DNA of 64,000 nt from Vicinamibacterales bacterium. Its GTDB lineage: Bacteria > Acidobacteriota > Vicinamibacteria > Vicinamibacterales > UBA2999. The notes under the pieces are model-generated. The model saw only the letters and a program-made list of their open reading frames with translations, did no database searches and was not told where the DNA came from. Shown in pieces: positions 3,835 to 63,161 of this stretch; the stretch's first letter is position 1; the number at the start of each line of letters is the position of its first letter. The stretch covers positions 131,344 through 195,343 of the forward strand of contig JBFWZN010000005.1 of assembly GCA_050185275.1 (NCBI GenBank), written 5' to 3'. Position numbers and translations under genes: made by a program.

Positions 3835-3885
3835 GCCGGGACCGGCGCCACGGCCCGGGCGCGCCACTCTCAGCGTGCCGGAACC

Positions 3886-6845: not shown

Positions 6846-7601
6846 ATGAAGGTCCTCAGCTGGAACGTCAACGGCGTGCGTGCCCGGCAGGCGGAGCTGC
6901 AGGCCATCGTGGAGCGCGAACGCCCCGCCGTCATCTGCCTCCAGGAGCTCAAGGCGTCGCCAGAGCAGCTTCCCGTGTGGGTCGTCGAGATGGAGGGCTA
7001 CTGGTGTTACTGGCATGGGGGCAAGGGGTACTCCGGGGTCGGCCTGCACGTCAGCAAGACCCTCTGTCCGGAGAAACCGGACTTCCACCACCCGACGTTC
7101 GACTTCGAGCATCGCCTGGTGACCGTCCATCTGCCCCAGGCCACCATCGCGTCGGTCTATGTGCCGAACGGGGGCAAGGACTTCGACGCCAAGCTCCGCT
7201 TCCTCGAAGCGCTCGACGCCTGGGCCGATGCGCAGCAACAGGACGGACGCCCGCTCATCGTCTGCGGGGACCTGAACGTGGCCCGTACGGACATGGACGT
7301 ACACCCGAAGGAGCGCAAGCCGCGCGTCATCGGCCAGCGTCCCGAAGAGCGCGCCCTGCTCGAGCGGCTGATCAGCCGTGGGCTCGACGACGTCCAGCGG
7401 CGGCTCCACCCCGACGACGCGGAACTGTTCACGTGGTGGGCGCCGTGGCGCAACCTCCGGGCCCGCAACATCGGCTGGCGGATCGACTACGTGCTCGCCT
7501 CGCGCGCACTGGCGGAGCGGGCGTCCACTTGCACTGTAGAGCGTGAGACCGGCACGAGCGATCACGGTGCGCTCGTTGCGGTCTTCGACGTGCCCACATA
7601 G
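6846..7601 (+). CDS. xthA: Exodeoxyribonuclease III
   Basis: MKVLSWNVNGVRAR...ICLQELK...SDHGALV, the ExoIII/AP-endonuclease family signature. GTG 6843 is an alternative start. Confidence 0.9.
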   Translation: MKVLSWNVNGVRARQAELQAIVERERPAVICLQELKASPEQLPVWVVEMEGYWCYWHGGKGYSGVGLHVSKTLCPEKPDFHHPTFDFEHRLVTVHLPQATIASVYVPNGGKDFDAKLRFLEALDAWADAQQQDGRPLIVCGDLNVARTDMDVHPKERKPRVIGQRPEERALLERLISRGLDDVQRRLHPDDAELFTWWAPWRNLRARNIGWRIDYVLASRALAERASTCTVERETGTSDHGALVAVFDVPT

Positions 7602-43155: not shown

Positions 43156-45333
43156 CTAGCGAGGCAGCTCGAACACGTAAAGCGCATTCCCGGAAGCCGG
43201 ATGGCGGACGTCGGGTGCGATCAGGCGGGGGACGTTGCGCGGACTGCCACCGCCAATGCCGGTCATGACGGCGACGTACTGCCGTCCATCGGCAGTGAAC
43301 GAGACGGGAAAGCCCTGCACCGACGTCCCGAGCCGGGTCTGCCAGAGGATCTCGCCGGTGCGAACGTCCAGCGCCTTGAACGCGCGGTCCAGGTCGCCGA
43401 CGAACGCCACGTCGCCTGCCGTCGTCAGCACCGACGTCAGGAACGGGGCGCGCTGCTCGTAGCTCCAGACTTCGTTCATCGTGCGCACGTCGTACGCGGC
43501 GAGCTTGCCGATGTTGCCGTCGGTGCCCGGCATCTCGAAGAACCTCCGGTCGCCGGCGGTGCCGCCGGACCCCGCGCGCAGCTCGACCTGTCGTCCCCGG
43601 ATCTCCATGCAGCTCTGGCTGAGGGGAATCACGAGCAGGCCGGCGCCGGGGTGATAGCTCATCGCCTGCCAGTTGTGCCCGCCCTCGGTGCTGGGACACG
43701 CGCTCACCCAGTCGCCCACTTTTGCCTCGAGGATGTCGCCACGGTAGGTCACGGCACCCGTGCGCGGGTCGATCGACTCGAAGACGTTCTGGAAGATCGT
43801 TTCCCGGTGCGCGAGGAACGCGCCCGTCTCGCGATCGAGCTTCCACAGGATGCCGGGCTTGCCGATGGTGAACAGGAGCTTGCGGTCGTCCACGTCCACC
43901 AGCACCCGCTCGAACACCTCATCGAGGTCGAGCGCCTCCCCGGGCGCGTGCTGATAGTGCCACCGGAGCTGGCCGGTGTCGGCGTCGAGCGCGACGGTCG
44001 AGCTCGTGTACAACGCCTTGTCGAGCGCCGACATGCCGCGGCTCGCGGGAACCCATGGCTTCGCCTGGGCCGTGCCCCAGTAGGTGAGGTTCAGTTCGGG
44101 ATCGAACGAGCCGACGATCCAGGCCTCGCCACCAGCCCGGAGGTGGTCCGGCTGCGCGCCCCAGGTGTCGGCGCCCGTCTCGGCCCCCGACGCCACGGTG
44201 TGGAACTTCCAGAGGCGCTCGCCCGTGGCCGCGTCGTAGGCGCTGATGTAGCAGGGCTCGGCGCCGAACCGGTCGCATCCGCCAAGCCCCTGAATCACCT
44301 TGCCGTTGGCCACGATGGACCCAACCGTGGCCGTGTAGTTGCCCGCCGTGGTGTCGGCGACAGGCACGTCCCACACGGTACGCCCCGTGCGCGCCTCGAT
44401 GGCCACGAGCCTTGCGTCGGTCGTGGTGAAGTAGATCCGATCCCCGTAGATTGAAATGTTCCGCATCGAGGCGAGCCCGAGCGCGCGCTCCGGACCGACC
44501 CGGTTCTCCCAGATCAGCTCTCCCGTCCGGCCGTCGAGCGCCTGCAGGACGTTGAGCGGGTTGGTCAGGTAGATGACCCCGTCGTGCACGAGCGGCATCG
44601 TCTGGTTGGAGCCTCCCTCCACCATGTTCCAGACCCAGGCGAGCCGCAGCGCGCCGACGTTCTCCCGTGTGATCTGATCAAGCGGCGAGTGGCTCCAGCC
44701 CTGGTAGGTGCGCCGGGCCATCAGCCAGTCGCCGGCCGGAGGGTTGCGCAGCATCGCATCGGTGACCGGCGTGAAGGCAGGGACCTCGCCGCGCACCGTG
44801 AGACCGGCCGCCGGCGCGGGAGGCGCGACGGCCGCGGGGGCCGGTGATAGCGTCGCGGGGCCGGTAGCCGTCACGCCGACCGCAGGCACCGCCACCGCCT
44901 GATTGGTCGCGGGCGATGCCGCGACGGCCGCGCCAATCGCAATGGTGGAACCGGGCGCCAGGGCCGATGGGCCTGTGCTGGCGCCGTTGGCCTGGAGGAT
45001 GTACGCGGTGATGGCCGTCGCCGTGGCCATGCCCAGCGTCCCCGGCTGGAGCGGGGGCATGGCCCGATCGATGTAGTCGATCAGGGCGCCAGCGGGGCGG
45101 CTCCCCCATTCCGAGAGGAAGTTGACGCCTGCCAGGGCCGGCGCTTCATTGAAGCCTCCAAGGTCGGCACGGTGGCAGCTTGCGCACGACGCGTCATAGG
45201 CCGCCCGCCCCGCAGACGCCTGCGCCGCGGTGAACACGGACCCCTGCGACGTCGGCTGCTGAGCCCGAAGGTTCCAGCCAAGGGTGGCCATCACCAGGGC
45301 AATGGCCACCGCAAGCAGACGGATACGACTCAC
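43156..45333 (-). CDS. PQQ-dependent dehydrogenase (beta-propeller) with N-terminal cytochrome c domain
   Basis: Signal peptide, a CASCH haem-c motif, an Ala/Pro linker, then PQQ-propeller W-repeats ([36 protein letters not shown]). Confidence 0.85.
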
Positions 45334-45779
45334 CGGCGCTCCTTCCGGGGCATCAACCAGCCCCGGAGGTTACCCTCGGGGGCCGCGGTGCTGTGGACCT
45401 GCACGTAGAGACGATTCCGCCGCAGATGCTCGAGCTGCGCGTCGGTCACGGTGAACACGCCCTCCACCGTGCCTGCAGAGGCCTTCGTCACCGAGAGGTC
45501 GAGGAGCGTGGGTCCCCGCAGGCCGGGCGGACCCACGTGGATGTGCGCCTCCGTGGCGGGCCCCTGCAGCCCCTGAAACGTGCCGGTCACGCGCAGCGTA
45601 CGCCCGTCCAGGCGGGCCTCCACCGCCCCCACCCCGGTCGTCGTCGGCTGGAGGGTGGCATCAACGGGCAGGGGCGACAGCCGCGAGGTATAGACCCCGA
45701 CGTCCTGCGGGTACGCCTGGGAGACGCCCAGACACGACGCGAGCACACACCCGGCGAACAGGCGGAGGACAGACAGCAT
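45330..45779 (-). CDS. CHRD-domain protein, secreted
   Basis: Contains [16 protein letters not shown]...[19 protein letters not shown]. The signal peptide is [18 protein letters not shown]. Its stop overlaps the GTG start of the PQQ dehydrogenase (GTGA). Confidence 0.75.
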
Positions 45780-46115
45780 GCGCGGCTCCTGAGAGCAGGG
45801 AAAACGCGCCGGAATCATAGCACCCGGCTCTCCCCGCCCCGGGGCCGCGCGGTCCCCCTGACCGGACCGGCGAGTCGGGCTCCTCCAGCATCAGCGGGAT
45901 TGGCGGATGAGCGCGCCACCGCAAGGATGCGCTGGTTTGTGCCCGGGTGCAATCAGCAGGGCTGCCACCCGGATGGCACGCGACAGCGCTGCGCGGTCGG
46001 CCGTGCCCCGCAGCGGGCAGGTGACGGGGTTCGACGGGCAGACTTGCACTCTGCAGCGGTGTCCGCCAGCAACCGATAGACCTGTCAGCACCGCTCCTAT
46101 AGCCGGTTTTTCAGG

Positions 46116-48053
46116 ATGGCATCGGTCACAGACCCTACCAGCACTCCCTCGGGTAAGGCAGCACTCGCGGATACGCACCGCATAGGGGACGTCCTCGTCG
46201 AGGACGGCGCTATTACTGCAGAGCAGCTCAGCAAGCTCCTGCGCGTCCAGGCCCGCCTCGAAGACCACAAGCCCATCGGCCAGCTGGCTATCGAGCTGGG
46301 CATGCTCACCAGGGCGCGGCTCGAGGAAGCCCTGCGGAAGCACCGGCGCGGGCTCTCGATCGAGGGCATTCTCGTCGAGCGCGGGGTCATCCGGGCCGAG
46401 CAGGTCGCTGCGGCGCGTGATGCGCTCAAGGGCAGCGCCAGCGATGTGGCACGGCACCTGGTCGACATCGGAGCGGTGTCCGAGCGTGTCTACCTGCTGG
46501 CCTATTGCGAGCGGCACGGCATGTCGTTCATCGACGTGGAGCCCGGCCTCGTCGATCGGTCGCTGCTCAAGAAGGTCAGCATCAAGTATCTCAGCCGGCA
46601 CCGGATCGTCCCGCTGTCGATCAAGGACGGCCGGCTGAACGTGGTGATCAGCGACGTTGGGCAGAGCGAGCTGGCCGCCGAACTCGAGCGCCTGTACGGC
46701 ACGCCCATCACGTTCTGGGTCAGCGAACGGCACAAGATTGCCTCGACGCTCTCGGCCCTCGAGAACGAGACGGCCGAAGGGCGCATCGCCACGAACCGGC
46801 GCATCGAGTACCGGAACGTCGCACCCGGGGTGACCGACGACGCGGGCGGGGCCGCCGAGATCGTCGAGAGCGTCATCCTGCGCGCCATCCGCGACCGGGC
46901 GAGCGACATCCACTTCGAGCCCGACCCGAGCCGCCTGCGCGTCCGCAACCGGATCGACGGCCAGCTCATTCCGGTAGCAGAGTACCCGGCCAACCTGAGC
47001 GCGGCCATCATCTCGCGCGTCAAGGTGCTGGCCGAGGCGGACATCGCCGAGCACCGGGTACACCAGCAAGGCCGCATTTACATCCGCTGCGACGGCGAAG
47101 ACATCGACCTGCGCGCGTCCTTCTACGTCACCGTCGCCGGCGAGAACGCCGTGCTGCGGATCCTCCGCAAGGGCAGCACGCTGGTGGGCCTCGAGGAGAT
47201 GGGGTTCTCACCCGCCACCCTCACGACGTTCATCCAGGACGTGCTCGAGCCCAACAGCGGCATGCTGCTGGTGACCGGGCCGACGGGCAGCGGCAAGACC
47301 ACCACGCTCTATGCCTCGCTGCAGCGGCTCGTGGACGCCTCGAGCAAGGTGATCACGTGCGAGGACCCCGTGGAGTACGTGGTGGACGGCATCACCCAGT
47401 GTTCCGTCTCGGACCGGCCGGGCATGTCGTTCGTGGACTCGCTCAAGTCCATCGTGCGGCAGGATCCGGACATCATCCTCGTGGGTGAGATCCGCGACGC
47501 CGAGTCGGCCAACATGGCCATCCATTCGGCGCTGACAGGGCACAAGGTGCTCACGACGTTCCACACCGAGGACACCGTGGGAGCGCTCGTGCGGCTGATT
47601 CAGATGGACATCGAGCCGTTCCTGATCTCGTCGACCATCACGGCCATCGTCGGCCAGCGGCTGGTACGCCGTCAGTGCGCCCACTGCCGGGCGGACTACA
47701 CGCCGACCGCCATGGAAGTGCGTGCGCTCGGACTCTCGCGCGACGAACTCGGTGGGTTCAGCCTGACGAAGGGACGAGGATGCCCAGCCTGCCATTACAC
47801 GGGCTACCACGGACGCGTGGGTGTCTATGAACTGCTCGTCATGAACGACCTGCTGCGCGACACGATCCTGCAGAAGCCTGCCGCGCACGAGATCCGGCGC
47901 GTCGCGCAGGAGGCACCCGACTTCGTCTCGCTGCAGGAGGACGGCGTCGCCAAGGCGCTGCGCGGTGAGACGACGCTGTCGGAGATCGCGGCCAACTGCC
48001 CGCGCCGCCCGATGATGCGCCCGCTGCGGCAGCTCATGGAGATGTGCGCGTGA
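46116..48053 (+). CDS. GspE/PilB-family secretion ATPase with repeated MshEN-like N-terminal motifs
   Basis: Walker A GPTGSGKTT, Asp box ITCEDPVEY, Walker B DPDIILVGEIRD, His box LTGHKVLTTFHT, and a tetracysteine CAHC...CPAC. The N-terminus has a T2SSE_N domain preceded by tandem RIGDVLVEDGAITAEQLSKLLRVQ-type motifs. Confidence 0.9.
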   Translation: MASVTDPTSTPSGKAALADTHRIGDVLVEDGAITAEQLSKLLRVQARLEDHKPIGQLAIELGMLTRARLEEALRKHRRGLSIEGILVERGVIRAEQVAAARDALKGSASDVARHLVDIGAVSERVYLLAYCERHGMSFIDVEPGLVDRSLLKKVSIKYLSRHRIVPLSIKDGRLNVVISDVGQSELAAELERLYGTPITFWVSERHKIASTLSALENETAEGRIATNRRIEYRNVAPGVTDDAGGAAEIVESVILRAIRDRASDIHFEPDPSRLRVRNRIDGQLIPVAEYPANLSAAIISRVKVLAEADIAEHRVHQQGRIYIRCDGEDIDLRASFYVTVAGENAVLRILRKGSTLVGLEEMGFSPATLTTFIQDVLEPNSGMLLVTGPTGSGKTTTLYASLQRLVDASSKVITCEDPVEYVVDGITQCSVSDRPGMSFVDSLKSIVRQDPDIILVGEIRDAESANMAIHSALTGHKVLTTFHTEDTVGALVRLIQMDIEPFLISSTITAIVGQRLVRRQCAHCRADYTPTAMEVRALGLSRDELGGFSLTKGRGCPACHYTGYHGRVGVYELLVMNDLLRDTILQKPAAHEIRRVAQEAPDFVSLQEDGVAKALRGETTLSEIAANCPRRPMMRPLRQLMEMCA

Positions 48054-48961
48054 CGAATCCGGCGTCCGCCGTGGCGGGGGGCACCACAGGGCCCGAAGCC
48101 GTGGACCTCGAGCAGGCGCCCCCTGTGGAGCCGTTGGCGGTCCGCGTGGAGCGCCAGATCAAGGAAGGCCGGCTGACCCTGCCGGTCATGCCGGCGGTCG
48201 CGTTGGAGGTCCAGCGGCTCATCGAAGCAGAAGCCGGCATCCCGGCAATAGCCGCCGCAATCGGACGGGATCCGTCGATCGCCGCGGCCGTGGTCAAGTA
48301 CGCCAACTCCGCCATGTACGCCGGCCTGCGTGAAGTGACCGACATCCAGCAGGCCGTGATGCGCCTGGGGCTGCTGCCGGTCCAGCAGGCCGTCACGGCA
48401 CTCTCGGCCCGGTCGCTCTTCGAGCGGGCTGCCCCTGCACATGCCGAGTTCTACAAGCGCATCTGGCGCCATTCCCTGACGACGGCGCTGGCAGCCCGGC
48501 GACTGGCGTCGCGGGTCCGCATCGCGCCGGACACGGCCTTCCTGGCAGGACTGCTCCACGACCTCGGCAAGGTCGTGGTCCTCCAGTCGGCCGCGGGTCT
48601 GCAGGGACGAGCACCGGCCGGTTTTGCCATCGACGACGCGACGGTACTCGAGTTCGTCGAGGCCCTGCACTGCCCGGTGGGTGACATGCTCTTCGAGACG
48701 TGGAAGATCCCGTCGGACCTCCGCGACGTCCTCCGCCGGCATCACGACCCCTCGTTGAGCGGCGTGGGCGACATGCTCGTCGCCGTGGTACAGATGGCCG
48801 ACTTGCTCGCGGCCAAGGTGGGGGCGAGCCTCCACCCTGACCCCGAGCTTTCACTTGTCGATTGCCCCGCAGCGGCTCTCCTCCGCCTCGACGACGTGAA
48901 GCTGGCCAGCCTGCTCGTGGACCTCGAGGACGACCTCGAGGCCACACACGACGCGTTCTGA
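48044..48961 (+). CDS. HDOD-domain protein
   Basis: LPVMPAVALEVQRLI, IAAAVVKYANSAMY and LLHDLGKVVVL. The start overlaps the end of the ATPase gene. GTG 48050 would give a GTGA overlap and is an alternative start. Confidence 0.8.
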   Translation: MRVTNPASAVAGGTTGPEAVDLEQAPPVEPLAVRVERQIKEGRLTLPVMPAVALEVQRLIEAEAGIPAIAAAIGRDPSIAAAVVKYANSAMYAGLREVTDIQQAVMRLGLLPVQQAVTALSARSLFERAAPAHAEFYKRIWRHSLTTALAARRLASRVRIAPDTAFLAGLLHDLGKVVVLQSAAGLQGRAPAGFAIDDATVLEFVEALHCPVGDMLFETWKIPSDLRDVLRRHHDPSLSGVGDMLVAVVQMADLLAAKVGASLHPDPELSLVDCPAAALLRLDDVKLASLLVDLEDDLEATHDAF

Positions 48962-50087: not shown

Positions 50088-51725
50088 TCAGGCGTGGACG
50101 CCTGGCGCCTCGTGTCCCGTGCGGGTGACGTAGTCCACGTAGGAGCCCGGATAGAGATGTGGCTCGACGTCGGTACCGCTCTCGCCGCCCAGCTCGAGGA
50201 CGCGGTTGCCAAGGGCGCGCAGGAAGGCACGGTCGTGCGACACGAAGAGCATCGTCCCGTCGAAGTCCGTGAGCGCTTCGATCAGCATCTCCTTGGTGAA
50301 CAGGTCCAGGTGATTGGTGGGCTCGTCCAGGATCAGGAAGTTCGGGGGGTCGAGCAGCATGCGGGCCATGGCCAGGCGGGTCTTCTCGCCGCCCGACAGG
50401 GCGCGGATCCGCTTGTCCACGTCGTCGCCCGAGAACTGGAAGGCGCCGGCCAGATTGCGGAGCGCACCCACCGACTCCTGCGGAAAGTCGCGTTGCAGCT
50501 GCTCCTCCACCGTGAGCGTGGGGTCGAGAAGATCGAGCGCCTGCTGCGCGAAATACCCCATCCTGACGCTCGGCCCCAGGGCGACCGTTCCGGCGTCGGG
50601 CTCGAGGGCGCCGGCCACCATCTTGAGCAGCGTGGACTTGCCCGCGCCGTTCTTCCCCATCACGCACCAGCGTTCGCCCCGCCGGATGGTCATGCCCAGG
50701 CCCGCGTGCACGACGCGACGCCCCCAGGCCTTGGAGACGCCCTCGAGCACCGCCACCTGATCCCCGGACCGTGACGGCACCCGGAAATCGAACTTCACCA
50801 CCTTGCGCTTCTTCGGCAGCTCGATCCGCTCGATCTTGTCGAGCGCCTTCACCCGGCTCTGCACCTGGGCCGCCTTCGCGGCATGCGCGGCGAAGCGTTC
50901 GATGAAACGCTGCTCCTTGGCCAGCATCGCCTGCTGGCGGGCGTATGCCGCCTCGCGGTTGGACTCACGAATGGCGCGTTCGCGCTCGTAGAAGTCGTAG
51001 TTGCCGGAGTACGTGGTGATTTCTCCGCCGTCGATCTCTGCAATCTTCGTCGTGACGCGGTTCATGAACTCACGGTCGTGGGAGGTCATGAGGAGCGCGC
51101 CCGGCAACGAGCGGAGAAAGCCCTCGAGCCAGATGATGGATTCGATATCGAGGTGGTTGGTCGGCTCGTCCATCAGGAGGACGTCGGGCCGGCCGAGCAG
51201 GACGCGCGCCATGGCCACGCGCATCTTCCAGCCCCCCGACAGCTGCCCCACGTCGGCGTCGATGCGCTCGTCGTCGAAGCCCAGCCCGTGAAGGACCTCG
51301 CGGGCCTGGGCCTCGAGGCCGTAGCCGCCCAGATGGTCGTACGCGTCCTGTACCTCGCCAAAGCGCGTCAGGATGCGGTCGAGGTCGTCGGCGCGGGCCG
51401 GATCGCTCATGGCGTGCTGGAGCGACTCGAGTTCGTGGTGCAGGTCGCCCAACCGTCCGCTACCGGCGATGGCCTCGTCGAGGACGGAGCGGCCGGCCAT
51501 CTCCCCAACGTCCTGCCGGAAGTAGCCGATCGTGAGCTTCTTCGGCACGGAGACTTCTCCCTCGTCGGGAACCTCCTCGCCCACGATCATCCGAAAGAGG
51601 GTGGTCTTGCCGGCGCCGTTGGGCCCGACCAGACCAACCTTTTCACCCGGGTTCAACTGAAAGGCGGCGTCCACGAACAGGACCTGCCGGCCGTACTGCT
51701 TGCCGAGACGCGAGAAGGAGATCAC
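50088..51725 (-). CDS. ABC-F family ATPase (two NBDs, no TMD; YbiT/EttA-like)
   Basis: Two Walker A motifs (GPNGAGKTT, GKNGAGKST), two signature motifs (LSGGWKMR, LSGGEKTR) and two Walker B motifs (LLMDEPTNHLD, LILDEPTNHLD). The 673-aa ORF was trimmed to GTG 51725 (VISFSRLGK). Confidence 0.85.
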   Translation of the reverse strand: MISFSRLGKQYGRQVLFVDAAFQLNPGEKVGLVGPNGAGKTTLFRMIVGEEVPDEGEVSVPKKLTIGYFRQDVGEMAGRSVLDEAIAGSGRLGDLHHELESLQHAMSDPARADDLDRILTRFGEVQDAYDHLGGYGLEAQAREVLHGLGFDDERIDADVGQLSGGWKMRVAMARVLLGRPDVLLMDEPTNHLDIESIIWLEGFLRSLPGALLMTSHDREFMNRVTTKIAEIDGGEITTYSGNYDFYERERAIRESNREAAYARQQAMLAKEQRFIERFAAHAAKAAQVQSRVKALDKIERIELPKKRKVVKFDFRVPSRSGDQVAVLEGVSKAWGRRVVHAGLGMTIRRGERWCVMGKNGAGKSTLLKMVAGALEPDAGTVALGPSVRMGYFAQQALDLLDPTLTVEEQLQRDFPQESVGALRNLAGAFQFSGDDVDKRIRALSGGEKTRLAMARMLLDPPNFLILDEPTNHLDLFTKEMLIEALTDFDGTMLFVSHDRAFLRALGNRVLELGGESGTDVEPHLYPGSYVDYVTRTGHEAPGVHA

Positions 51726-51742
51726 GCCCGTACGATAGCAGG

Positions 51743-52096
51743 CTACTTGTCGGTCCAGACCTGACGCGCGGCCTCGATGGCCATCCGGCGCTGCACGACA
51801 TCGGCGAGATCGGCTTCGAGGAAGCGAAGGCCGCCGAGGACCCACTCGGCTACCTCCGGGTGCACGAGCCGGTAATACACATGGCGGCCTTCCTTGCGTT
51901 CCACGACCACGTGGTGCGCACGAAGGACCGCCAGGTTCTGCGAGGTGCGTGAGTGGCTCACCCCGAGTGTCTCCTGGAGCGCATTGACGTCGCGCTCGCC
52001 TTCCCGAAGCGCTTCGACGATGCGGACCCGGTCTGGATGGCTGAAGGCCCCGAACAGTTTCGCAAGCTCTCGAGCTGCAATGGCGCGACTGGGCAT
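51743..52096 (-). CDS. ArsR/SmtB-family transcriptional regulator (no cysteines)
   Basis: Contains LAKLFGAFSHPDRVRIVEALREGERDVNALQETLGVSHSRTSQNLAVLRAHHVV, a wHTH. The protein has zero Cys, so the ELCVCDL-type site is absent. Confidence 0.85.
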   Translation of the reverse strand: MPSRAIAARELAKLFGAFSHPDRVRIVEALREGERDVNALQETLGVSHSRTSQNLAVLRAHHVVVERKEGRHVYYRLVHPEVAEWVLGGLRFLEADLADVVQRRMAIEAARQVWTDK

Positions 52097-52122
52097 CGCG
52101 CGTATTCAATCACATTTCTTTA

Positions 52123-52144
52123 GAATGTCCATACATTCGAATGT
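52123..52144. promoter_or_regulatory. GAATGT-N4-ACATTCGAATGT inverted-repeat cluster in the arsR-proximal half of the AT-rich divergent region
   Basis: A perfect 12-bp palindrome acattcgaatgt at 52133-52144, plus an extra gaatgt at 52123-52128. It lies 27-48 bp upstream of the arsR start codon. Confidence 0.45.
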
Positions 52145-52237
52145 TCAACTCAATGATTGCAATGAACAGCCAAGCCCATTGGCCAGGCGAAGTGAGAAAA
52201 CAGTCGAAATAGAGGTGATATCGGTCGAAAGATAGGG

Positions 52238-52267
52238 TTGACAGCGACCCGCGCCCGTCAATACAAT
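52238..52267 (+). promoter_or_regulatory. Candidate sigma-70 promoter of the ABC-HlyD-TolC operon (TTGACA-18 nt-TACAAT)
   Basis: Consensus -35 at 52238-52243 and a 5/6 -10 at 52262-52267. Two GTCGAAA direct repeats sit at 52203 and 52224, 21 bp apart, just upstream. Confidence 0.5.
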
Positions 52268-52297
52268 TCATGTATTCATGTGTTTGAATATATGAAT
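52266..52297. promoter_or_regulatory. Nested inverted repeat ATTCAtgtATTCAtgtgttTGAATataTGAAT; candidate (ArsR-type) operator
   Basis: A 32-bp imperfect palindrome with 12 of 16 arm positions matching, centred at 52281/52282. It starts inside the -10 hexamer and covers the ATG (52292) of the ABC gene. Confidence 0.5.
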
Positions 52298-54472
52298 CAT
52301 AATACCAATTCAACCCAGCCATTCGACCCCCACCGCCTGCTGCCGGCGATCGAGTACCTCGCGCGGGTGCACGCGACCGAGGTGAACGCGCAGGCCCTCC
52401 AGGATGCCCTCCGCCGCACTGGGGATCCCTCCAGGGCGACGGCCGGGACCACGCCGGCCAGGCTCCTGGCCACGCTCGCCGCCGAGGCGGGCCTGGCCAC
52501 CGCCACCGTCCGGCGCCCGGTGGCGGACGTGCTGGCGGATGCCAGTCCCTCGTACCCGTGGCTGGCCTTCCACCACACGGCCGACGGGCGACTGGAGGCA
52601 CTCGCGGTCCTGGAGTACGGCCGCCGGGGCGTGAAGGTCGTCGTCCCCGGAAGCACGGCCCGGCCGGTTCGCTGGCCGGTGGCGAGCCTGCTCGAGTGGC
52701 TTCGCGTCGCCGACACCTCGGCCACCGTGGAGTGGCTCCTCGCGGAGCCCGCCGCCCCGCTCTCGCGTCTCCGGACGACACCGGGCATGGCGCGCATCGG
52801 TCCCGACAAGCGGCTTCGGGCGCTGCTCGTCGGCGAACGGCAGACGCTGTGGGTGGCGGTCGTGTACTCCGTCGTCATCGGACTGCTGTCGCTCGTCGTT
52901 CCGATCGCCGTGCAGTCGGTGGTGAACACGATTGCCTTCGGCTCCGTGATACAGCCGCTCGTGGTGCTCACGCTCTTCGTGCTCGTGGCGCTCGGCTTCT
53001 CGACAGCGTTGAACACCCTGCGGGCCAGTGTCGTCGAGATCGTCCAGCGCAGCATCTTCGCCCGTGTCTCGACGGACGTGACCTATCGACTCCTTCGGGT
53101 CCGCGCCGACGCGTTCGACCGGTACCACGGACCGGAGCTGGTCAATCGCTTCTTCGACACCGTCACGGTGCAGAAGTCCGCCTCCCTGCTGCTCATCGAC
53201 GGCCTCAGCATCGTGATGCAGACGGCCATCGGCATGCTGCTGCTCGCCGTCTACCATCCGTGGCTGGCGGTGTTCGACGTGCTCCTCGTCCTCGCGATGC
53301 TCGTCATCGTCTTCGCCCTCGGACGAGGAGCGGTCACGACGGCGATCACGGAGTCCAAGGCGAAGTACGCGCTCGAGGGCTGGCTGGAACAACTCGCCAC
53401 GCACCTGGTCACCTTCAAGTCGGCCGGCGGAACCACCTACGCCACGGCGCGGGCGCATCACCTCCTCGAGCAGTACCTCGACTACAGGAGCCGGCACTTC
53501 TCCATTCTCATCCGGCAGATCATCGGCTCCTTCGCCCTGCAGGCTGTGGCGAGCGCCGCGCTGCTCGGCATCGGGGGCTGGCTCGTCATCGAACGCCAGC
53601 TGACGCTCGGGCAGCTGGTGGCGAGCGAACTCATCGTCTCGGCGATGGTCAGCGCCTTCACGAAGTTCGGCAAGCAGCTCGAGGTCTTCTATGACCTCAG
53701 CGCAGCGCTGGACAAGCTGGGCGACCTCATCGATCTCCCACTCGAGCGCGGCGGGGGCGAGGCGACACTGCCCGGGACCGGCCCGGCGAGCCTCGAGATC
53801 CAGGACGTGCAGGTGTCCTACGACGACGACTCGCCCCCCGCGCTCCGCGTGGCCCACCTGTCCGTTCCCGCGGGCGAGCGCGTGGGCATCACCGGACCGA
53901 ACGGTTCGGGCAAGAGCACGCTGGCAGACACCATCTTCGGCATGCGCCCCCCAGCGCGCGGGGTGCTCCGCATCGATGGCGCCGATCAGCGTGCCCTTTC
54001 GCTGCGGACACTGCGCGAACATGTGGCGCTCGTCAGGAGCATCGAGCTGTTCCCGGGCTCCATCGTGGACAACGTGCGGCTCGGGCGATCCGCGATCTCG
54101 ATGGACGACGTCTCGGCGGCGCTCGAGGCCGTGGGCCTGCTCACTGATGTCCTGGCCCTGCCGGAAGGCATCCATACGACCATCCAGCCCCACGGCCGTC
54201 CCCTGTCACAGGGCCAGGCGCGGCGCCTGATGATCGCCAGGGCGATCGTCGGACGGCCCCGTCTGCTGGTGCTCGACGGGGCGCTCGACCAGATCGACGG
54301 GCCAGGAGAGCGCGAGCGACTCGCCGACCTGCTGTTCGATCCGACCGCACCGTGGACCCTGCTCTGCCTCACCGAGCAGCCAGACGTCCTCTCCCGGTGC
54401 GCGCGGGTCGTGACGATGCGGGACGGCGCGTGCGTGGACCTGGCGGTGACCGAAAAGGAGTTCGAGTCGTGA
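52292..54472 (+). CDS. HlyB-like ABC exporter: N-terminal C39-like domain (no catalytic Cys), 6-TM domain and an NBD with degenerate catalytic motifs
   Basis: ABC_membrane-type TMD, Walker A GPNGSGKST, signature LSQGQ, and Walker B LLVLDG. The start was trimmed from TTG 52238 (which is itself the -35 hexamer) to ATG 52292. Confidence 0.8.
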   Translation: MNHNTNSTQPFDPHRLLPAIEYLARVHATEVNAQALQDALRRTGDPSRATAGTTPARLLATLAAEAGLATATVRRPVADVLADASPSYPWLAFHHTADGRLEALAVLEYGRRGVKVVVPGSTARPVRWPVASLLEWLRVADTSATVEWLLAEPAAPLSRLRTTPGMARIGPDKRLRALLVGERQTLWVAVVYSVVIGLLSLVVPIAVQSVVNTIAFGSVIQPLVVLTLFVLVALGFSTALNTLRASVVEIVQRSIFARVSTDVTYRLLRVRADAFDRYHGPELVNRFFDTVTVQKSASLLLIDGLSIVMQTAIGMLLLAVYHPWLAVFDVLLVLAMLVIVFALGRGAVTTAITESKAKYALEGWLEQLATHLVTFKSAGGTTYATARAHHLLEQYLDYRSRHFSILIRQIIGSFALQAVASAALLGIGGWLVIERQLTLGQLVASELIVSAMVSAFTKFGKQLEVFYDLSAALDKLGDLIDLPLERGGGEATLPGTGPASLEIQDVQVSYDDDSPPALRVAHLSVPAGERVGITGPNGSGKSTLADTIFGMRPPARGVLRIDGADQRALSLRTLREHVALVRSIELFPGSIVDNVRLGRSAISMDDVSAALEAVGLLTDVLALPEGIHTTIQPHGRPLSQGQARRLMIARAIVGRPRLLVLDGALDQIDGPGERERLADLLFDPTAPWTLLCLTEQPDVLSRCARVVTMRDGACVDLAVTEKEFES

Positions 54473-57303: not shown

Positions 57304-57318
57304 TAGAATGCCCAGGTG
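57304..57318 (+). promoter_or_regulatory. TAGAAT -10 element 6 nt upstream of the GTG start of the M23 gene (possible leaderless mRNA)
   Basis: The sequence tagaat-gcccag-GTG is read directly. No SD sequence and no good -35. Confidence 0.3.
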
Positions 57319-58701
57319 AGTTCACTTCTTCGCTTCATCGTGGCGGTCAGCATCCTCGCCCTGATCATCGTGGGCGTCGGCTGGATCTCGGCCGGACGGG
57401 CGGCCGGCCCGGATATCCGCATCCGCCAACCCGGCGATTTCATCGGACAGGATACGACGCTCGATCTGGCGGTCGAGGCGCCAGATGGCCTGCTGTCGGC
57501 GCTGGATGTCACGGTGGAGCAGGGCGGCACATCCTTTCCGGTGTACTCGCTCAACGCCCCGCTGAACGAGGGAGCGACCCAGGACTCGGCTGAGAGCCTC
57601 TACGTAATGCGACCCATCGGCAGGAGCGCAATCGCCGATCTCCGCACCGGGGACGCACGCATCGTGGTGCGGGCGGCCCGGCCGGTCCTGTACGGGTTCC
57701 GGCAGGCCGAATCGGTGGTCACCAAGGACGTGCAGGTCCGACTCGAGCCCCCGCAGGTGACCGTGCTTTCCACGTTCCACTACGTCAACCACGGCGGCGC
57801 GGAACTGGTGGTGTACCGTGTCGGGCCGGACGACGTCACCTCGGGCGTGCGGGTGGGCGAGCATACGTATCCCGGCTACCCGGGTTCGGCGGCCGGACTC
57901 GGCGGCGACGCCGGGGTGCGGGTGGCGTTCTTCGCGCTCCTGCACGATCAGGATCTCGCCACGCCCATCGAGGTGGTGGCGGAGGACCCGGCGGGCAACA
58001 CGACCGCCGTCCCACTCGACCATCGGGTCTTTCCGAAGGCGTTCGCGCGCAGCCGGATCACCATCGACGATCGTTTTCTGTCGCGCGTGATACCGGCCAT
58101 GGCCGCCGCCAATCCCGACCTGAATCTGGCCACTGCGCCGGAGGCCCTGGTCGACTCCTTCCTCCGCGTCAACCGGGACCTCAGGCGCGAGAACAACCAG
58201 ACGCTGGTGGAACTGGCGGGCAGGACGGCGTCCGAGATGTTCTGGCGGGATGCGTTCCAGCCTCTCGGCAACGCATCGGTGGAAGCCGGGTTTGCCGACT
58301 ATCGCACCTACCTGCACGACGGCGAGGAGATCGACCAGCAGGTGCATCTCGGCTTCGACCTGGCGGTGACGGCGCAGGTGCCGATCACGGCTGCGCAGCG
58401 CGGGCGTGTGCTCCACGCCGGCAATCTCGGCATCTACGGCACCGCGGTCGTCCTCGATCACGGACTGGGCGTGCAGTCGCTGTATGCCCATCTGTCGTCG
58501 GTCGGCGTCGCCCCCGACGAGCTGGTGGACAAGGGCGCCGTCATCGGACGCAGCGGCATGACCGGACTGGCCGCCGGCGACCACCTGCACTTCACCGTGC
58601 TGCTCCAGGGCCAGGCCGTGAACCCGGTGGAATGGTGGGATCCAAAGTGGATCCAGGACCGGGTGCTCCGGAAGCTCGACGAGGCAGGCCGCGTGAGATA
58701 A
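57316..58701 (+). CDS. Membrane-anchored M23-family (LytM-type) metallopeptidase
   Basis: N-terminal TM FIVAVSILALIIVGVGW. The C-terminal HLGFDLA...GTAVVLDHGLGVQSLYAHLS...GDHLHFTV matches the HxxxD...HxH M23 motifs. Confidence 0.85.
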   Translation: MSSLLRFIVAVSILALIIVGVGWISAGRAAGPDIRIRQPGDFIGQDTTLDLAVEAPDGLLSALDVTVEQGGTSFPVYSLNAPLNEGATQDSAESLYVMRPIGRSAIADLRTGDARIVVRAARPVLYGFRQAESVVTKDVQVRLEPPQVTVLSTFHYVNHGGAELVVYRVGPDDVTSGVRVGEHTYPGYPGSAAGLGGDAGVRVAFFALLHDQDLATPIEVVAEDPAGNTTAVPLDHRVFPKAFARSRITIDDRFLSRVIPAMAAANPDLNLATAPEALVDSFLRVNRDLRRENNQTLVELAGRTASEMFWRDAFQPLGNASVEAGFADYRTYLHDGEEIDQQVHLGFDLAVTAQVPITAAQRGRVLHAGNLGIYGTAVVLDHGLGVQSLYAHLSSVGVAPDELVDKGAVIGRSGMTGLAAGDHLHFTVLLQGQAVNPVEWWDPKWIQDRVLRKLDEAGRVR

Positions 58702-58822
58702 TTCCGGGGTCCGAGCCCACCATGCACTGCCAGGTTCCCTCAGCTATCGTGACCCGCGGGTGCCCGGCCATCCGAGGAACATTCGCCCCGTATCGGGCTC
58801 CTTGGGCCGGGGGCACCGCGTG

Positions 58823-59752
58823 ATGAAGGCGGGAGCACGGGCAGCAACCGTCGGCGTGACGGCGGCAGGGTCCATCAGCCATGGGCGGCGCACCGCAGAT
58901 CTCATCGAACTCACCAAGCCCCGGCTGAACCTGCTCGTGCTCGTGACGACGCTGGCTGGCATGTACCTGGCCGCGCCGTCCGGTGTACCCGCCCTGCTGG
59001 TGCTCCATACGCTCGTGGGTACTGCGCTCGTGGCGGGAGGCGCCGCAGCGCTGAACCAGGTGTGGGAGCGGTCGACCGACAGCCTGATGCGTCGCACCCG
59101 CTCGCGGCCGGTCCCGGCGGGCCGGGTACGCCCGGCGCACGGCACGGGCTTCGGAGTGGCCCTGTCGGCGGCGGGGCTCGCCCAACTCACGCTCGGCGTG
59201 AACGCAGTGGCCGCCGCGGTGGCCGCCCTCACCCTCGTGAGCTATGTGCTCTTCTACACGCCGCTCAAGCGGTACACCTCCCTGGCGACGCTCGTCGGCG
59301 CGGTCCCGGGGGCGCTGCCTCCCGTCATCGGCTGGGCGGCGGGCGCGGGCAGCGTCTCCGAGCCCGCCCTCGTCCTCTTCGGCATCGTGTTCTTCTGGCA
59401 GATGCCGCACTTCCTCGCCCTCGCGTGGATGTACCGCGACGATTACGCGGCGGCCGGCATCCCGCTGCTCCCGGTCATCGAGCGCGATGGGCGCCGCACC
59501 GGCCGGCAGGCCCTGTTGTACGCGGCGGCGCTCTGGCCCGTGAGTCTGCTTCCGGCGGTGGTCGGCCTGGCCGGTGTGTTCTACAGCAGCGTGGCTACCG
59601 TGCTCGGCGTGATCTTCATCGCCCTGGCGGGACAGTTCGCGAACGAGCGTTCCATGGCCGCAGCCCGTCGACTGTTCCTCGCCTCGATCACCTACCTCCC
59701 GCTCCTGTGGGGCGCGCTCGTCGCCGACCGCGTCTGGTTGTCGGCGCCTTAG
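58823..59752 (+). CDS. ctaB: Protohaem IX farnesyltransferase (haem O synthase)
   Basis: LTKPRLNLLVL..., ALNQVWERSTDSLMRRTRSRP and UbiA-family Asp-rich motifs. Trimmed to ATG 58823. Confidence 0.88.
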   Translation: MKAGARAATVGVTAAGSISHGRRTADLIELTKPRLNLLVLVTTLAGMYLAAPSGVPALLVLHTLVGTALVAGGAAALNQVWERSTDSLMRRTRSRPVPAGRVRPAHGTGFGVALSAAGLAQLTLGVNAVAAAVAALTLVSYVLFYTPLKRYTSLATLVGAVPGALPPVIGWAAGAGSVSEPALVLFGIVFFWQMPHFLALAWMYRDDYAAAGIPLLPVIERDGRRTGRQALLYAAALWPVSLLPAVVGLAGVFYSSVATVLGVIFIALAGQFANERSMAAARRLFLASITYLPLLWGALVADRVWLSAP

Positions 59753-59756
59753 GACC

Positions 59757-60173
59757 ATGGAACTGGCCGATCTTCCCGCGCTGAACGCCGTCCTCAACGG
59801 GATGGCCGGGGCACTGCTCCTGACTGGCTACCTCTTCATACGCCGGGGAGATCAGCGCAACCACATGCGCTGCATGCTCGGAGCCCTGGCCATGTCGGCA
59901 CTGTTCCTGGTGTCATACGTGATCTACCACGCGAACGTCGGCTCCCGGCCGTTCCCCGGCGAGGGCCTGATTCGTGTGGTCTACTTCGTGATCCTGATTT
60001 CGCACGTGGTGCTGGCGGCCCTCATCGTACCGCTGGCGCTCGTGACTGCGCGCAGGGGCTGGCGGGAGCAGTTCGACCGGCACGTGCGGGTGGCCCGGTG
60101 GACGTTTCCCCTGTGGATGTACGTGTCGGTCACCGGCGTCGTGATCTATCTCATGCTGTATCAGCTGTACTGA
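59757..60173 (+). CDS. DUF420-family membrane protein (cytochrome-oxidase-associated)
   Basis: LPALNAVLNGMAGALLLTGYLFIRRG...H..CML with four TM segments. Positioned after ctaB, as is typical. Confidence 0.7.
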   Translation: MELADLPALNAVLNGMAGALLLTGYLFIRRGDQRNHMRCMLGALAMSALFLVSYVIYHANVGSRPFPGEGLIRVVYFVILISHVVLAALIVPLALVTARRGWREQFDRHVRVARWTFPLWMYVSVTGVVIYLMLYQLY

Positions 60174-61025: not shown

Positions 61026-63161
61026 ATGCCCCATCGCTCCTCAAGGGTCACGAGCCGTTGGCAGGCCACGCTCATCCTGGCCCTCTTCGGCCTGGCCGTC
61101 GTGACCTCAGCCGTCGTGGGCTGGCGCTATGCGAGGCGTTCGTCTCCACATCTGGGACCGCTCGTCCTTCTGTCCGTGGACGGCCTGCGCACCGAACGCC
61201 TCGCGGCCTATGGCGGTGGCGACGGTACCACGCCGGCCCTCGATGCCCTGGCCGCCGAGAGTCTGGTGTTCGAGCGGGCCTACGCCCACACCACACAGAC
61301 GCTTCCATCGCACGCCTCCCTCTTCACCGGCACGCTCCCCCCTGCGCACGGGGTGCGGAACGACGTGGGGTTCTCCCTTGGGCGTGAGGCCCGGACGCTG
61401 GCCGAACTGCTCGACGCCCGGGGCTTCGCCACGGGAGGCGCGGTCTCCTCGCCCCTGCTTGGGCCGGAGAGCGGGCTGAACCAGGGGTTCACGACTTATG
61501 AAGCCGGCATCGAGGCCGATGCGGCAACGGGCCCCCTCACGACGATGCGGGACGGCGAGCTGACGATCGACGCCATCGAGCCCTGGGTGGAGGAGCAGCA
61601 GGACCAACGGTTCTTCCTCTTCGCGCACGTGGATGCCGGACCGGCAGATGCCGCACTGGGGCGGCTGGTCGATCTCCTCAAGGACAAGGGGTTCTACGAC
61701 GACGCCACCATCCTCGTCGTCGGCGCACATGGCGACCTGAGCGGCGACGACCCGCTCGCCGAGCGTGCGGTGCGCGTCCCCCTCATCGTGAAGCAGCCGG
61801 ATGCCGCCGGAGCCGGACGGCGGATCGCCGAGCCCGTGCAGCAGGTGGACCTCGTGCCCACCATCCTGGATCTCGTGCGGGCCCCGACGCCCGATGGCCT
61901 CGCGGGCCGCTCACTGCGTGAAGTGCTCGACGGAGAGGAGCTGGAGCCACCCGCGTCCGGGATTTATTCCGAGTCGATGGCCGCTCATTTCCGGCTGGGG
62001 CGACCTCCGTATGTGGCGCTCCTTCGGGATGGGGTGCGATACGTCCGGACCGAGGACGAGCGCATCGAGGCCGTGGACGAGGCTCTGGCTGCAGTGGCGG
62101 ATCCCACGGTGCTCGGCGCGCTCAGGCAGTCAGCCGACCGCCTGCGCGCCGGGCCTGGCGCCCGTCCACAGGCCGACATCCCCGAGGCCCTGGCCGATCG
62201 CGTGGCCAGCCTGGGCTGGCTCGACATGCTGCAGCCTCCTGTCACCAGCGAGCCCGCGATGACGACGCGCGAGAGTTCGGCTTTGCTGCGCGAACTCTCC
62301 AATGCCGCGCAGCTCGCGGCCGGGCACCAGTACGGCGGGGCGGCTGAACGCCTGGGCCACGTCGTTGGTCGCTACCCCTGGCTTGCCCCGGCCTGGTACG
62401 AACTCGGCCAGGTGCTCCTGCGTGCGGGCCGAACGCCGGACGCCGTGCGGGCATTCCGCGCCGCGGCAACGGCGCGCCCCGACGATGCCGAGGCGGCCGT
62501 CGCCCTGGCCTGGGCGCTGCTCCGCGACGGGCAGCACGCGGCGGCAGCACGCGAGGGGCACCGGGCGGCCGCCCTCGCCGGCCTGACCGCGCCAGACCGT
62601 GTGGCGGCTGCCTACGAAGTGGCGGCCCGCGCGGAACTGGCCGCCGACGATCTCGCCGCTGCGCTGCGTGATGCCGCACTGGCCGACGCCGCGGACGCGG
62701 AGGGGGCCTCGATCGTCAGCCTCGTGCAGGGCCTGAACCTCCTCGATCAGGATCGCCCCGCCGACGCCCTGGAGCAGCTGCAGCCCGCGGTGGCGGCGAG
62801 CGCCGCTGCCAGGGGCCAGGAGCCGCCTCGGGACCTGTACCTCGCGTTTGCTGACGCGCTTGCGCAGGTCGGGCGCGCCGAGGACGCCGACGCGGCGTAC
62901 CGGACGCAGCTGGAGCGGTTTCCGGGAACGCCCGGCGCGTACGCCGGGCTCGCGATGCTGCACGATGCCGCGGGCCGGAGCGATCAGGTGGAACGTGCCA
63001 TCGTCGATCTGCTGGAGGACATGCCGACACCCGAGGGCTTCGCCGCGGCGGCCCGCCTCTGGACCGCGGTCGGCGAACGCGAGCGCGCCGCGCAGGTGCG
63101 GGCGGATGCGCGAGCCAGGTTCAGCGGCCGCGTGCCGGCAGCCGGCCCGGCGCCGCGCTGA
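61026..63161 (+). CDS. Sulfatase/alkaline-phosphatase-superfamily enzyme (Thr-nucleophile type) fused to C-terminal TPR repeats, N-terminal TM anchor
   Basis: LLSVDGLRTERL (metal-binding Asp), with TQTLPSHASLFTG in place of the C/S-x-P-x-R sulfatase motif. The C-terminus has multiple TPR-like repeats. Confidence 0.75.
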   Translation: MPHRSSRVTSRWQATLILALFGLAVVTSAVVGWRYARRSSPHLGPLVLLSVDGLRTERLAAYGGGDGTTPALDALAAESLVFERAYAHTTQTLPSHASLFTGTLPPAHGVRNDVGFSLGREARTLAELLDARGFATGGAVSSPLLGPESGLNQGFTTYEAGIEADAATGPLTTMRDGELTIDAIEPWVEEQQDQRFFLFAHVDAGPADAALGRLVDLLKDKGFYDDATILVVGAHGDLSGDDPLAERAVRVPLIVKQPDAAGAGRRIAEPVQQVDLVPTILDLVRAPTPDGLAGRSLREVLDGEELEPPASGIYSESMAAHFRLGRPPYVALLRDGVRYVRTEDERIEAVDEALAAVADPTVLGALRQSADRLRAGPGARPQADIPEALADRVASLGWLDMLQPPVTSEPAMTTRESSALLRELSNAAQLAAGHQYGGAAERLGHVVGRYPWLAPAWYELGQVLLRAGRTPDAVRAFRAAATARPDDAEAAVALAWALLRDGQHAAAAREGHRAAALAGLTAPDRVAAAYEVAARAELAADDLAAALRDAALADAADAEGASIVSLVQGLNLLDQDRPADALEQLQPAVAASAAARGQEPPRDLYLAFADALAQVGRAEDADAAYRTQLERFPGTPGAYAGLAMLHDAAGRSDQVERAIVDLLEDMPTPEGFAAAARLWTAVGERERAAQVRADARARFSGRVPAAGPAPR

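Follow-up and report, generated by a model that had tools for sequence, protein, structure and literature searches.

The window analysed here is a 64,000-nt stretch of contig JBFWZN010000005.1 from a soil-dwelling Vicinamibacterales bacterium (70% G+C). It carries a three-gene operon for what would be a tripartite envelope exporter, with an ATP-binding cassette (ABC) half-transporter as the inner-membrane subunit, a HlyD-type periplasmic adaptor and a TolC-like outer-membrane factor (OMF) (Table 1). The half-transporter departs from the canonical ABC exporter in its nucleotide-binding domain (NBD): Gln of the Q-loop, Glu of Walker B and His of the H-loop have all given way to other residues, and its orthologues share these replacements. 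The closest public proteins come from Vicinamibacterales/Luteitalea (Acidobacteriota), and one public protein, 97% identical, matches the half-transporter in length and start. The adaptor gene starts within the end of the ABC gene, the two overlapping by 4 nt (GTGA). The adaptor has a membrane helix at its N-terminus and a long coiled coil, and it scores 75.8 bits against TIGR01843, which is under the cutoff of that model.

Table 1. Features of the exporter operon and the genes around it. Positions are those of the window; fractions for single residues refer to the 151 aligned family sequences described in the text.
Feature	Position (nt)	Strand	Remarks
ABC-F type soluble twin-NBD protein, 545 aa	50088..51725	-	likely GTG start at 51725; ABC_tran_Xtn linker
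ArsR/SmtB-family helix-turn-helix (HTH) regulator, 117 aa	51743..52096	-	divergently transcribed; Pfam HTH_5 E 2.5e-7; NCBIfam NF033788
AT-rich divergent promoter/putative operator region, 195 nt	52097..52291		43% GC vs 70% for the window; ATTCA/TGAAT inverted repeats
ABC half-transporter gene, 726 aa	52292..54472	+	intact open reading frame; C39-like domain, type-IV exporter membrane domain, predicted non-catalytic NBD
N-terminal C39-like domain, aa 1-170	52292..52801	+	Foldseek on domain model; zero Cys
Membrane domain, aa 175-485	52814..53746	+	Pfam ABC_membrane
His322, TM3-TM4 periplasmic turn	53255-53257		147/151
Asp329, periplasmic end of TM4	53276-53278		118/151
Glu446, outer half of TM6	53627-53629		144/151
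NBD, aa 497-720	53780..54451	+	Pfam ABC_tran
Walker A GPNGSGKST	53894..53920	+	intact (K541, S542)
Arg582	54035..54037	+	at Q-loop Gln position
Signature LSQGQ	54203..54217	+	non-consensus; aligned with LSGGQ
Walker B LLVLDG	54263..54280	+	Asp662 kept; Gly663 (54278-54280) replaces catalytic Glu
Glu695	54374..54376	+	at H-loop (switch) His position
HlyD-family periplasmic adaptor, 454 aa	54469..55833	+	Pfam HlyD_3, Biotin_lipoyl_2, HlyD_D23; gene call in L083
TolC-like OMF, 477 aa	55830..57263	+	signal peptide; Pfam OEP E 5.5e-29; gene call in L083
M23 peptidoglycan metallopeptidase	57316..58701	+	Pfam Peptidase_M23; directly downstream of OMF

The ABC protein is a type-IV exporter half-transporter with the two expected folds (PF00664 and PF00005). 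Pfam ABC_membrane matches residues 186-455 with 46.4 bits (cutoff 28), and ABC_tran matches residues 521-664 with 84.1 bits (cutoff 25), covering positions 4-135 of the 137 in the profile. None of the curated NCBIfam models is passed. The best match, the LssB-type ABC subunit of type I secretion systems (T1SS; TIGR03375), reaches 230.5 bits against a cutoff of 693.1, and the HlyB model TIGR01846 reaches 186.6 bits against 725.55. The AlphaFold model of the full-length protein has a predicted local distance difference test score (pLDDT) of 81.7, with the NBD blocks at about 90-97. In a structural comparison the model resembles HlyB of the HlyB/D complex most closely (8DCK_A, E 1e-31, 710 aligned columns) and PCAT1 next, and TM287/288 is also matched.

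An earlier sequence-only reading of this DNA had described the N-terminus as a C39 peptidase or C39-like domain without cysteine. Residues 1-170 indeed contain no Cys. No Peptidase_C39 match is found in this domain in Pfam at E<=1 or in a profile search of the PDB, so that membership of C39 at the sequence level was rejected and support comes from the fold. The AlphaFold model of the domain (pLDDT 89.8) has only C39 or C39-like domains among its top Foldseek matches, led by the C39-like domain (CLD) of HlyB (3ZUA, E 3e-4) and the peptidase domain of PCAT1 (7N87). Further matches are a Vibrio C39-like domain (3B79, TM score 0.71), ComA (3K8U, TM score 0.66) and 6MPZ. At the level of the predicted fold, the domain is thus supported as C39-like; having no Cys, it would lack a nucleophile and protease activity. 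In 96 of 121 sequences (the query and 120 orthologues) the domain has no Cys at all, and no alignment column contains a conserved one. The catalytic Cys/His dyad of peptidase-containing ABC transporters (PCATs) is accordingly not found in the window protein.

To place the nucleotide-site motifs, we used HMMER pairwise alignments (phmmer against the PDB) with solved ABC exporters, including P-glycoprotein chains. In these, LLVLDG pairs with ILLLDE, which puts Gly663 at the catalytic Glu, and CLTEQPD pairs with IAHRLST, which puts Glu695 at the H-loop His. The Q-loop segment ALVR.SIELF pairs with AVVSQEPALF and contains no Gln, and a gap-free count back from the conserved SIVDNV places Arg582 at the Gln position. 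When the protein is aligned without gaps to family members that retain LDE...TH, Gly663 and Glu695 fall in the same columns as the canonical residues. These alignments of the sequence confirm that all three catalytic residues (Q-loop Gln, Walker B Glu, H-loop His) are replaced. Pfam, phmmer-to-PDB and gap-free family alignments all agree, and none of them puts a Gln, Glu or His at the three positions, which rejects an indel or a misalignment as the source of the pattern. The X-loop also deviates, reading TTIQPHG where the exporters have TLVGDRG (consensus TxVGERG).

Elements that bind nucleotide are kept. They comprise the A-loop Tyr510, Walker A Lys541 and Ser542, Walker B Asp662 and the D-loop Asp669. 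The three replacements, together with every coordinate and residue including the Walker A position, had been called correctly from the letters. The signature, which had been listed as simply present, does align with LSGGQ but is not consensus. In public records, relatives are named 'peptidase domain-containing ABC transporter' or 'ABC transporter ATP-binding protein'. Judged by sequence, both names overstate, given that the window protein has neither the protease nucleophile nor any of the three canonical ATPase catalytic residues.

The unusual motif state is shared by close relatives. We assembled a set of 121 sequences comprising the query and 120 orthologues with at least 59% identity, all from Vicinamibacterales/Luteitalea. 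Arg582 is invariant (121/121), Gly663 is found in 117/121, and position 695 is Glu or Asp in 117/121. The ATP-binding residues are similarly fixed (Lys541 121/121, Ser542 120/121, Asp662 121/121, Asp669 117/121, Tyr510 110/121). At the signature, most orthologues have LS[HY]RQ, with an Arg at position 4 (Arg641) in 112/121, and the window protein belongs to a minority with LSxGQ. The ratio of non-synonymous to synonymous substitution rates (dN/dS), computed against a single 97%-identical relative (contig L083), is 0.094 for the whole gene, 0.10 for the NBD (11 non-synonymous and 37 synonymous differences) and 0 for the membrane domain (0 and 26). Purifying selection acts on the NBD, which is constrained and in working order. 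The substitutions are not strain-specific decay, since they are fixed in 117-121 of 121 orthologues and the NBD has a dN/dS of 0.10. The orthologue survey proposed with the sequence-only reading thus came out in favor of conserved degenerate motifs.

Beyond this clade, a scan limited to one genome per species located the exporter family at more than 586 genomic loci. They fall in at least six phyla, listed as Acidobacteriota, Planctomycetota, Myxococcota, Methylococcales, Bdellovibrionota and Verrucomicrobiota. Members include Vicinamibacterales and Bryobacterales, many planctomycetes (Gemmataceae, Pirellulaceae, Kuenenia, Uabimicrobium) and myxococci (Archangium, Cystobacter). The degenerate site is a family-wide phenomenon that spans several phyla, which goes beyond what could be read from the window.

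For residue counts across the family we aligned the query with 150 representatives, the best 150 clusters at 50% identity, each with a score of 468 bits or more (n = 151). The Walker B catalytic position is Gly in 62 sequences and Glu in 46, with Asp 11, Gln 7, Ala 6, Ser 6 and Arg 5. At the H-loop position we find Arg 30, His 27, Gln 21, Asn 15, Gly 13, Asp 11 and Ser 11. The Q-loop position is mostly Arg (99), followed by Ser 12, Gln 8 and Lys 7. The Walker A Lys is present in 128 sequences and lacking in 23. Lys, Glu and His are all kept in only 17 of the 151, and Glu and His are both gone in 95. Position 3 of the signature is variable, with Gly in only 8/151, and no LSGGQ occurs among the inspected locus-derived sequences.

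In five ABC genes (loci L069, L076, L078, L059 and L049), Walker A is lost altogether and the membrane domain is retained. The degraded P-loop strings in these members read ATPSASESL, GSPGGRASL, GGTAQSRSG, APSSGGSSE and APFGGGAST, and such proteins probably cannot bind nucleotide at all. Under Fitch parsimony on a neighbour-joining tree, Glu must have been gained or lost at least 30 times and His at least 21 times, approximate counts that depend on a simple tree. The losses of catalytic residues show lability, not one ancient loss.

The membrane domain behaves differently. In normal ABC exporters the NBD is the better conserved of the two domains; here the membrane domain is. Identity to the query averages 52% over the membrane domain, 41% over the NBD and 20% over the N-terminal domain, and among the 80 positions conserved at 90% or more, 66 lie in residues 174-485 and 14 in the NBD. 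Similarity of the membrane domain to any solved exporter is weak in sequence (E 1e-6). Three polar residues stand out in it, His322, Asp329 and Glu446. They are specific to this family, aligning with Ser, Val and Ser in ABCB10 and PrtD. They may serve to bind an ion or a proton, or touch the adaptor.

We compared the gene neighborhoods in 82 sequences, the window and 81 fetched related loci, with up to 8 kb on each side and many loci ending at contig ends. A homologue of the adaptor is found in 78/82 and one of the OMF in 61-64/82, many of these loci being cut by contig ends. The triad of ABC protein, HlyD-type adaptor and TolC-like OMF is conserved across the family. In one locus (L050, 6493-11532, Candidatus Uabimicrobium amorphum) the order is permuted to OMF-ABC-adaptor, indicating that the three genes travel together even when rearranged.

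Another NBD-like gene is absent from 79/82 loci within the DNA examined, and no second half-transporter gene occurs anywhere in the 64-kb window. In the complete genome of Luteitalea sp. TBR-22 there is one family gene among the matches, listed twice with different start codons.

No substrate gene recurs beside the triad across the 82 loci, where the recurrent families look like regulators, apart from one small protein. The remaining neighbors are unrelated housekeeping genes (PEP carboxylase, glutamate dehydrogenase, subtilase), although a substrate gene may lie farther away. Likewise, no gene for a cognate RTX substrate or a substrate with a C-terminal signal recurs near the triad, in a search limited to the neighborhood of these loci.

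An ArsR-type homologue lies beside the ABC gene in 15/82 loci. A LysR-type regulator is found near the triad in 21, adjoining it in Planctomycetota, Methylococcales and some Bryobacterales. The Methylomonas member passes the model for NhaR, a Na+-responsive activator (235 vs 219 bits). Just upstream of the ABC gene, 13 loci encode a conserved protein of ~115-150 residues without a Pfam or NCBIfam match. In L057 the genes of this LysR/small-protein setting lie at 3082-3993 (-) and 7128-7568 (+), and the setting is also seen in L029, L030, L038, L055, L056, L077 and others. These neighbors may provide a lead to the inducing signal.

ABC subunits of T1SS are homodimers. A homodimer with two non-hydrolytic sites is the arrangement suggested for the window protein by this precedent, by the single gene per locus and by the fact that one chain carries all the deviations. 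The reading that we put forward, and to which we give an even chance, is a homodimer whose two identical sites bind ATP, do not hydrolyze it in the canonical manner, and which is powered or gated in another way. That the protein pairs with itself, binds ATP without splitting it, gates transport and draws on another source of energy are all inferences. Both sites would bind nucleotide through Tyr510, Lys541/Ser542, Asp662 and Asp669. Canonical hydrolysis would be barred by Arg582, Gly663 and Glu695 in place of Gln, Glu and His, and by the non-consensus signature and X-loop. The NBDs would then act as an ATP-dependent clamp, sensor or gate, in the manner of the degenerate site of heterodimeric exporters or of NBD1 in CFTR. 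Translocation work would be borne by the membrane domain with its unusual conservation, the driving force being either the gradient of the substrate itself or that of an ion, and His322, Asp329 and Glu446 near the periplasmic side are candidates for the coupling residues.

Among the three options raised by the sequence-only reading (a partner encoded elsewhere, a nucleotide-gated non-hydrolyzing component or a scaffold), the nucleotide-gated option would fit best, and the partner is the least supported, given the signature and the 79/82 loci. Several points weigh against a homodimer without hydrolysis. The 17 of 151 family members that keep Lys, Glu and His suggest that hydrolysis may matter in some clades. 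The strict Arg582, the acidic residue at 695 and the Arg found mostly at position 4 of the signature could mark a re-built catalytic site. There is also a slight chance that a partner is encoded far away.

A more far-reaching version, which we hold tentatively and consider possible, is that the family has abandoned ATP hydrolysis. The NBD would serve as a nucleotide sensor or dimerization clamp, and in some lineages would be a nucleotide-free remnant, while export through the conduit of adaptor and OMF would either draw on an ion gradient or proceed as in a gated channel, by means of His322, Asp329 and Glu446. If this is true, the family represents an evolutionary intermediate between ATP-driven ABC exporters and secondary transporters without NBDs, such as SbmA.

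A precedent comes from the SbmA/BacA (SLiPT) peptide transporters, in which a membrane domain like that of ABC exporters runs on the proton gradient and not on ATP (PMC13316013). Unlike the present family, SbmA has no NBD left, works as an importer and does not belong to a tripartite system, whereas here the NBD is kept under purifying selection. The window protein is thus not a SLiPT, which has the membrane domain without an NBD. For energization by a proton gradient, the conserved His322, Asp329 and Glu446 give only hints.

In HlyB, the H-loop His and the Walker B Glu are neighbors at the gamma-phosphate. An alternative reading is a re-engineered ATPase that is still active, in which the carboxylate has moved from Walker B (Gly663) to the H-loop (Glu/Asp695), with Arg582 and, in most orthologues, the Arg at signature position 4 helping to polarize the gamma-phosphate. 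The complex would be an ATP-driven pump with unusual chemistry. From the geometry known for HlyB, the attacking water would plausibly be within reach of a carboxylate that occupies the His position. In the Vicinamibacterales clade the replacements are near-invariant (Arg582 121/121, Gly663 117/121, Glu/Asp695 117/121, Arg641 112/121), the NBD is under purifying selection, and all ATP-binding elements are kept.

Such compensation does not extend to the whole family. Other clades with Gly663 place Gly, Gln, Arg, Ser or Asn at the H-loop position (the planctomycete 'TGR' forms are one example), and the Walker A Lys is missing from 23/151 sequences. In the window protein the signature, LSQGQ, is itself without the Arg. 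Moreover, we know of no ABC catalytic arrangement in which a carboxylate stands by the gamma-phosphate without the Gln-coordinated Mg/water network. We regard a re-engineered ATPase as unlikely, though it deserves serious consideration.

The protein might instead be a static scaffold that anchors or assembles the conduit of adaptor and OMF, or serves a structural role in the envelope, with no transport cycle of its own. Such a role would agree with catalytic residues that are dispensable across the family, with the disappearance of Walker A in some members and with the absence of a conserved substrate gene beside the triad. A pure scaffold would, however, have no need of ATP-binding residues, which are invariant in the clade. 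Conservation is highest in the membrane helices that line the pathway and in the cytoplasmic helix extensions, and conserved polar residues inside TM3, TM4 and TM6 suggest a working translocation path. We consider a scaffold improbable.

Partners of heterodimeric exporters are normally encoded by adjacent genes. A heterodimer with a canonical half-transporter encoded elsewhere would have one active site, as in TM287/288 or TmrAB, and it has precedent in that the well-studied ABC exporters with degenerate sites are all heterodimers, or full-length proteins with one consensus site (see PMC7756269). In these exporters, one NBD departs from consensus at Walker B and the H-loop and the other at the signature, and one consensus site survives; the review of degenerate sites covers only transporters that retain one active site (PMC7756269).

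The window protein does not follow this rule. Its own signature is non-consensus (LSQGQ; LS[HY]RQ in 112/121 orthologues), and because the same chain carries this deviation, neither site of a mixed dimer would be fully consensus. Neither two adjacent half-transporter genes nor a degenerate chain that supplies a consensus signature (the rule in PMC7756269) is found here. A second exporter gene is not seen within up to 8 kb on each side in 79/82 loci from six phyla, nor in the window. We therefore find a heterodimer hard to credit.

One further ABC gene does lie nearby, that of an ABC-F protein ~570 nt upstream of the exporter, beyond the ArsR gene and on the opposite strand. The sequence-only reading had counted a single ABC gene in the operon, which holds for exporters and leaves out this neighbor. 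As the missing ATPase partner, the ABC-F protein was rejected: it is a soluble twin-NBD protein with an ABC_tran_Xtn linker, is encoded on the opposite strand and is not conserved at the locus. It adjoins the exporter only in the window genome and in L083, not at the Luteitalea TBR-22 locus, and no ABC-F-like open reading frame of two-domain length is present in the other sequences searched (82 including the window).

Finally, a decaying pseudogene or an alignment artefact, which the scores far under curated cutoffs might suggest (TIGR03375, 230 vs 693 bits), can be given next to no credence against an intact 726-residue open reading frame, a dN/dS of 0.094, the same motif state in 117-121 of 121 orthologues, a confident model (pLDDT 81.7) and concordant alignments.

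To our knowledge, ABC transporters need at least one competent ATP site, and degenerate sites are known only beside an active one. The reading of a non-hydrolyzing homodimer is best set against HlyB/LssB-type T1SS. With these the window protein shares the domain order of a C39-like fold without nucleophile, a type-IV membrane domain and an NBD, and its operon shares the HlyD-family adaptor and the OEP-type OMF. It differs in scoring far under the cutoffs, in a CLD recognizable by fold only, in the replaced Gln, Glu and His with a non-consensus signature and X-loop, and in having no RTX-type or other conserved substrate gene near the triad. PCAT1, ComA and LahT are similar in the N-terminal fold (7N87, 3K8U, 6MPZ) and in overall architecture, whereas the N-terminal domain of the window protein has neither Cys nor a Peptidase_C39 sequence match.

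Closer to the nucleotide site, TM287/288, TmrAB, BmrCD, TAP1/2 and NBD1 of CFTR and SUR have likewise lost the Walker B Glu and often the H-loop His, retain ATP binding and use the degenerate site as a structural or regulatory clamp (PMC7756269). TM287/288-type exporters, in contrast, keep one consensus site and spread the deviations over two chains, while here one gene has all of them. CFTR, an ATP-gated channel, and SUR, a regulatory subunit, are further examples of exporter-fold NBDs that gate or regulate and do not power uphill transport (PMC7756269). In contrast to the window protein, they are eukaryotic full-length ABCC proteins without adaptor or OMF partners, and their site 2 still hydrolyzes ATP.

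What appears to be new here is a HlyB-like tripartite ABC exporter with putatively non-catalytic nucleotide sites. In the open-access full-text literature on degenerate or inactive ABC exporters and T1SS we found no description of such a family, an absence that is not proof. Members of the family are numerous, occur widely in the environment and are subject to purifying selection, yet its single-gene half-transporter has every degenerate feature at once. Across its members the catalytic residues, and sometimes the Walker A Lys, come and go, and the membrane domain stays fixed. If the proteins are homodimers, they would be natural experiments on what ATP binding alone does in an ABC exporter, on how a T1SS-like conduit can be energized without hydrolysis, and on how primary transporters evolve into secondary transporters or channels.

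The operon is probably under the control of the divergently transcribed ArsR/SmtB regulator. The regulator passes NCBIfam NF033788 (82.1 bits, cutoff 55) and corresponds to a 117-residue gene call in the 97%-identical contig L083. In a mechanical call of open reading frames it is concealed, as the frame at 50088-52109 (-) merges the ABC-F gene and the regulator, which lie in two different frames. The intergenic region contains inverted repeats, I1-I4, for example 52266-52278 / 52285-52297, which reach into the start codon of the ABC gene, and a distant pair at 52103-52115 / 52278-52290. These ATTCA/TGAAT repeats are candidate ArsR operator sites.

Downstream of the triad, the M23 peptidase has its best NCBIfam match in a Pgp6-like model (205 bits, under the cutoff of 600). 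Among the sequences searched, a homologue is found in the window only; the near-identical contig L083 also has one, and there is none at the Luteitalea TBR-22 locus. As a component of the system the peptidase was rejected, since it is not conserved beside the triad, and it is probably outside the system. An anti-phage defence system was likewise rejected, as PADLOC gave generic P-loop and HTH matches only.

Farther out on the upstream side, 43156-45818 (-) encodes a PQQ-dependent dehydrogenase (725 aa) that starts with a cytochrome c domain, and beside it a CHRD-domain protein (162 aa). At 46116-48961 (+), a secretion ATPase of the T2SSE/PilB type (645 aa), which contains an MshEN domain, is followed directly by an HDOD-domain protein, and neither is linked to the exporter. 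On the other side, 58760-60173 (+) and 61026-63161 (+) encode a UbiA-family prenyltransferase, a DUF420 protein and then a sulfatase-TPR fusion, in the same order as in L083.

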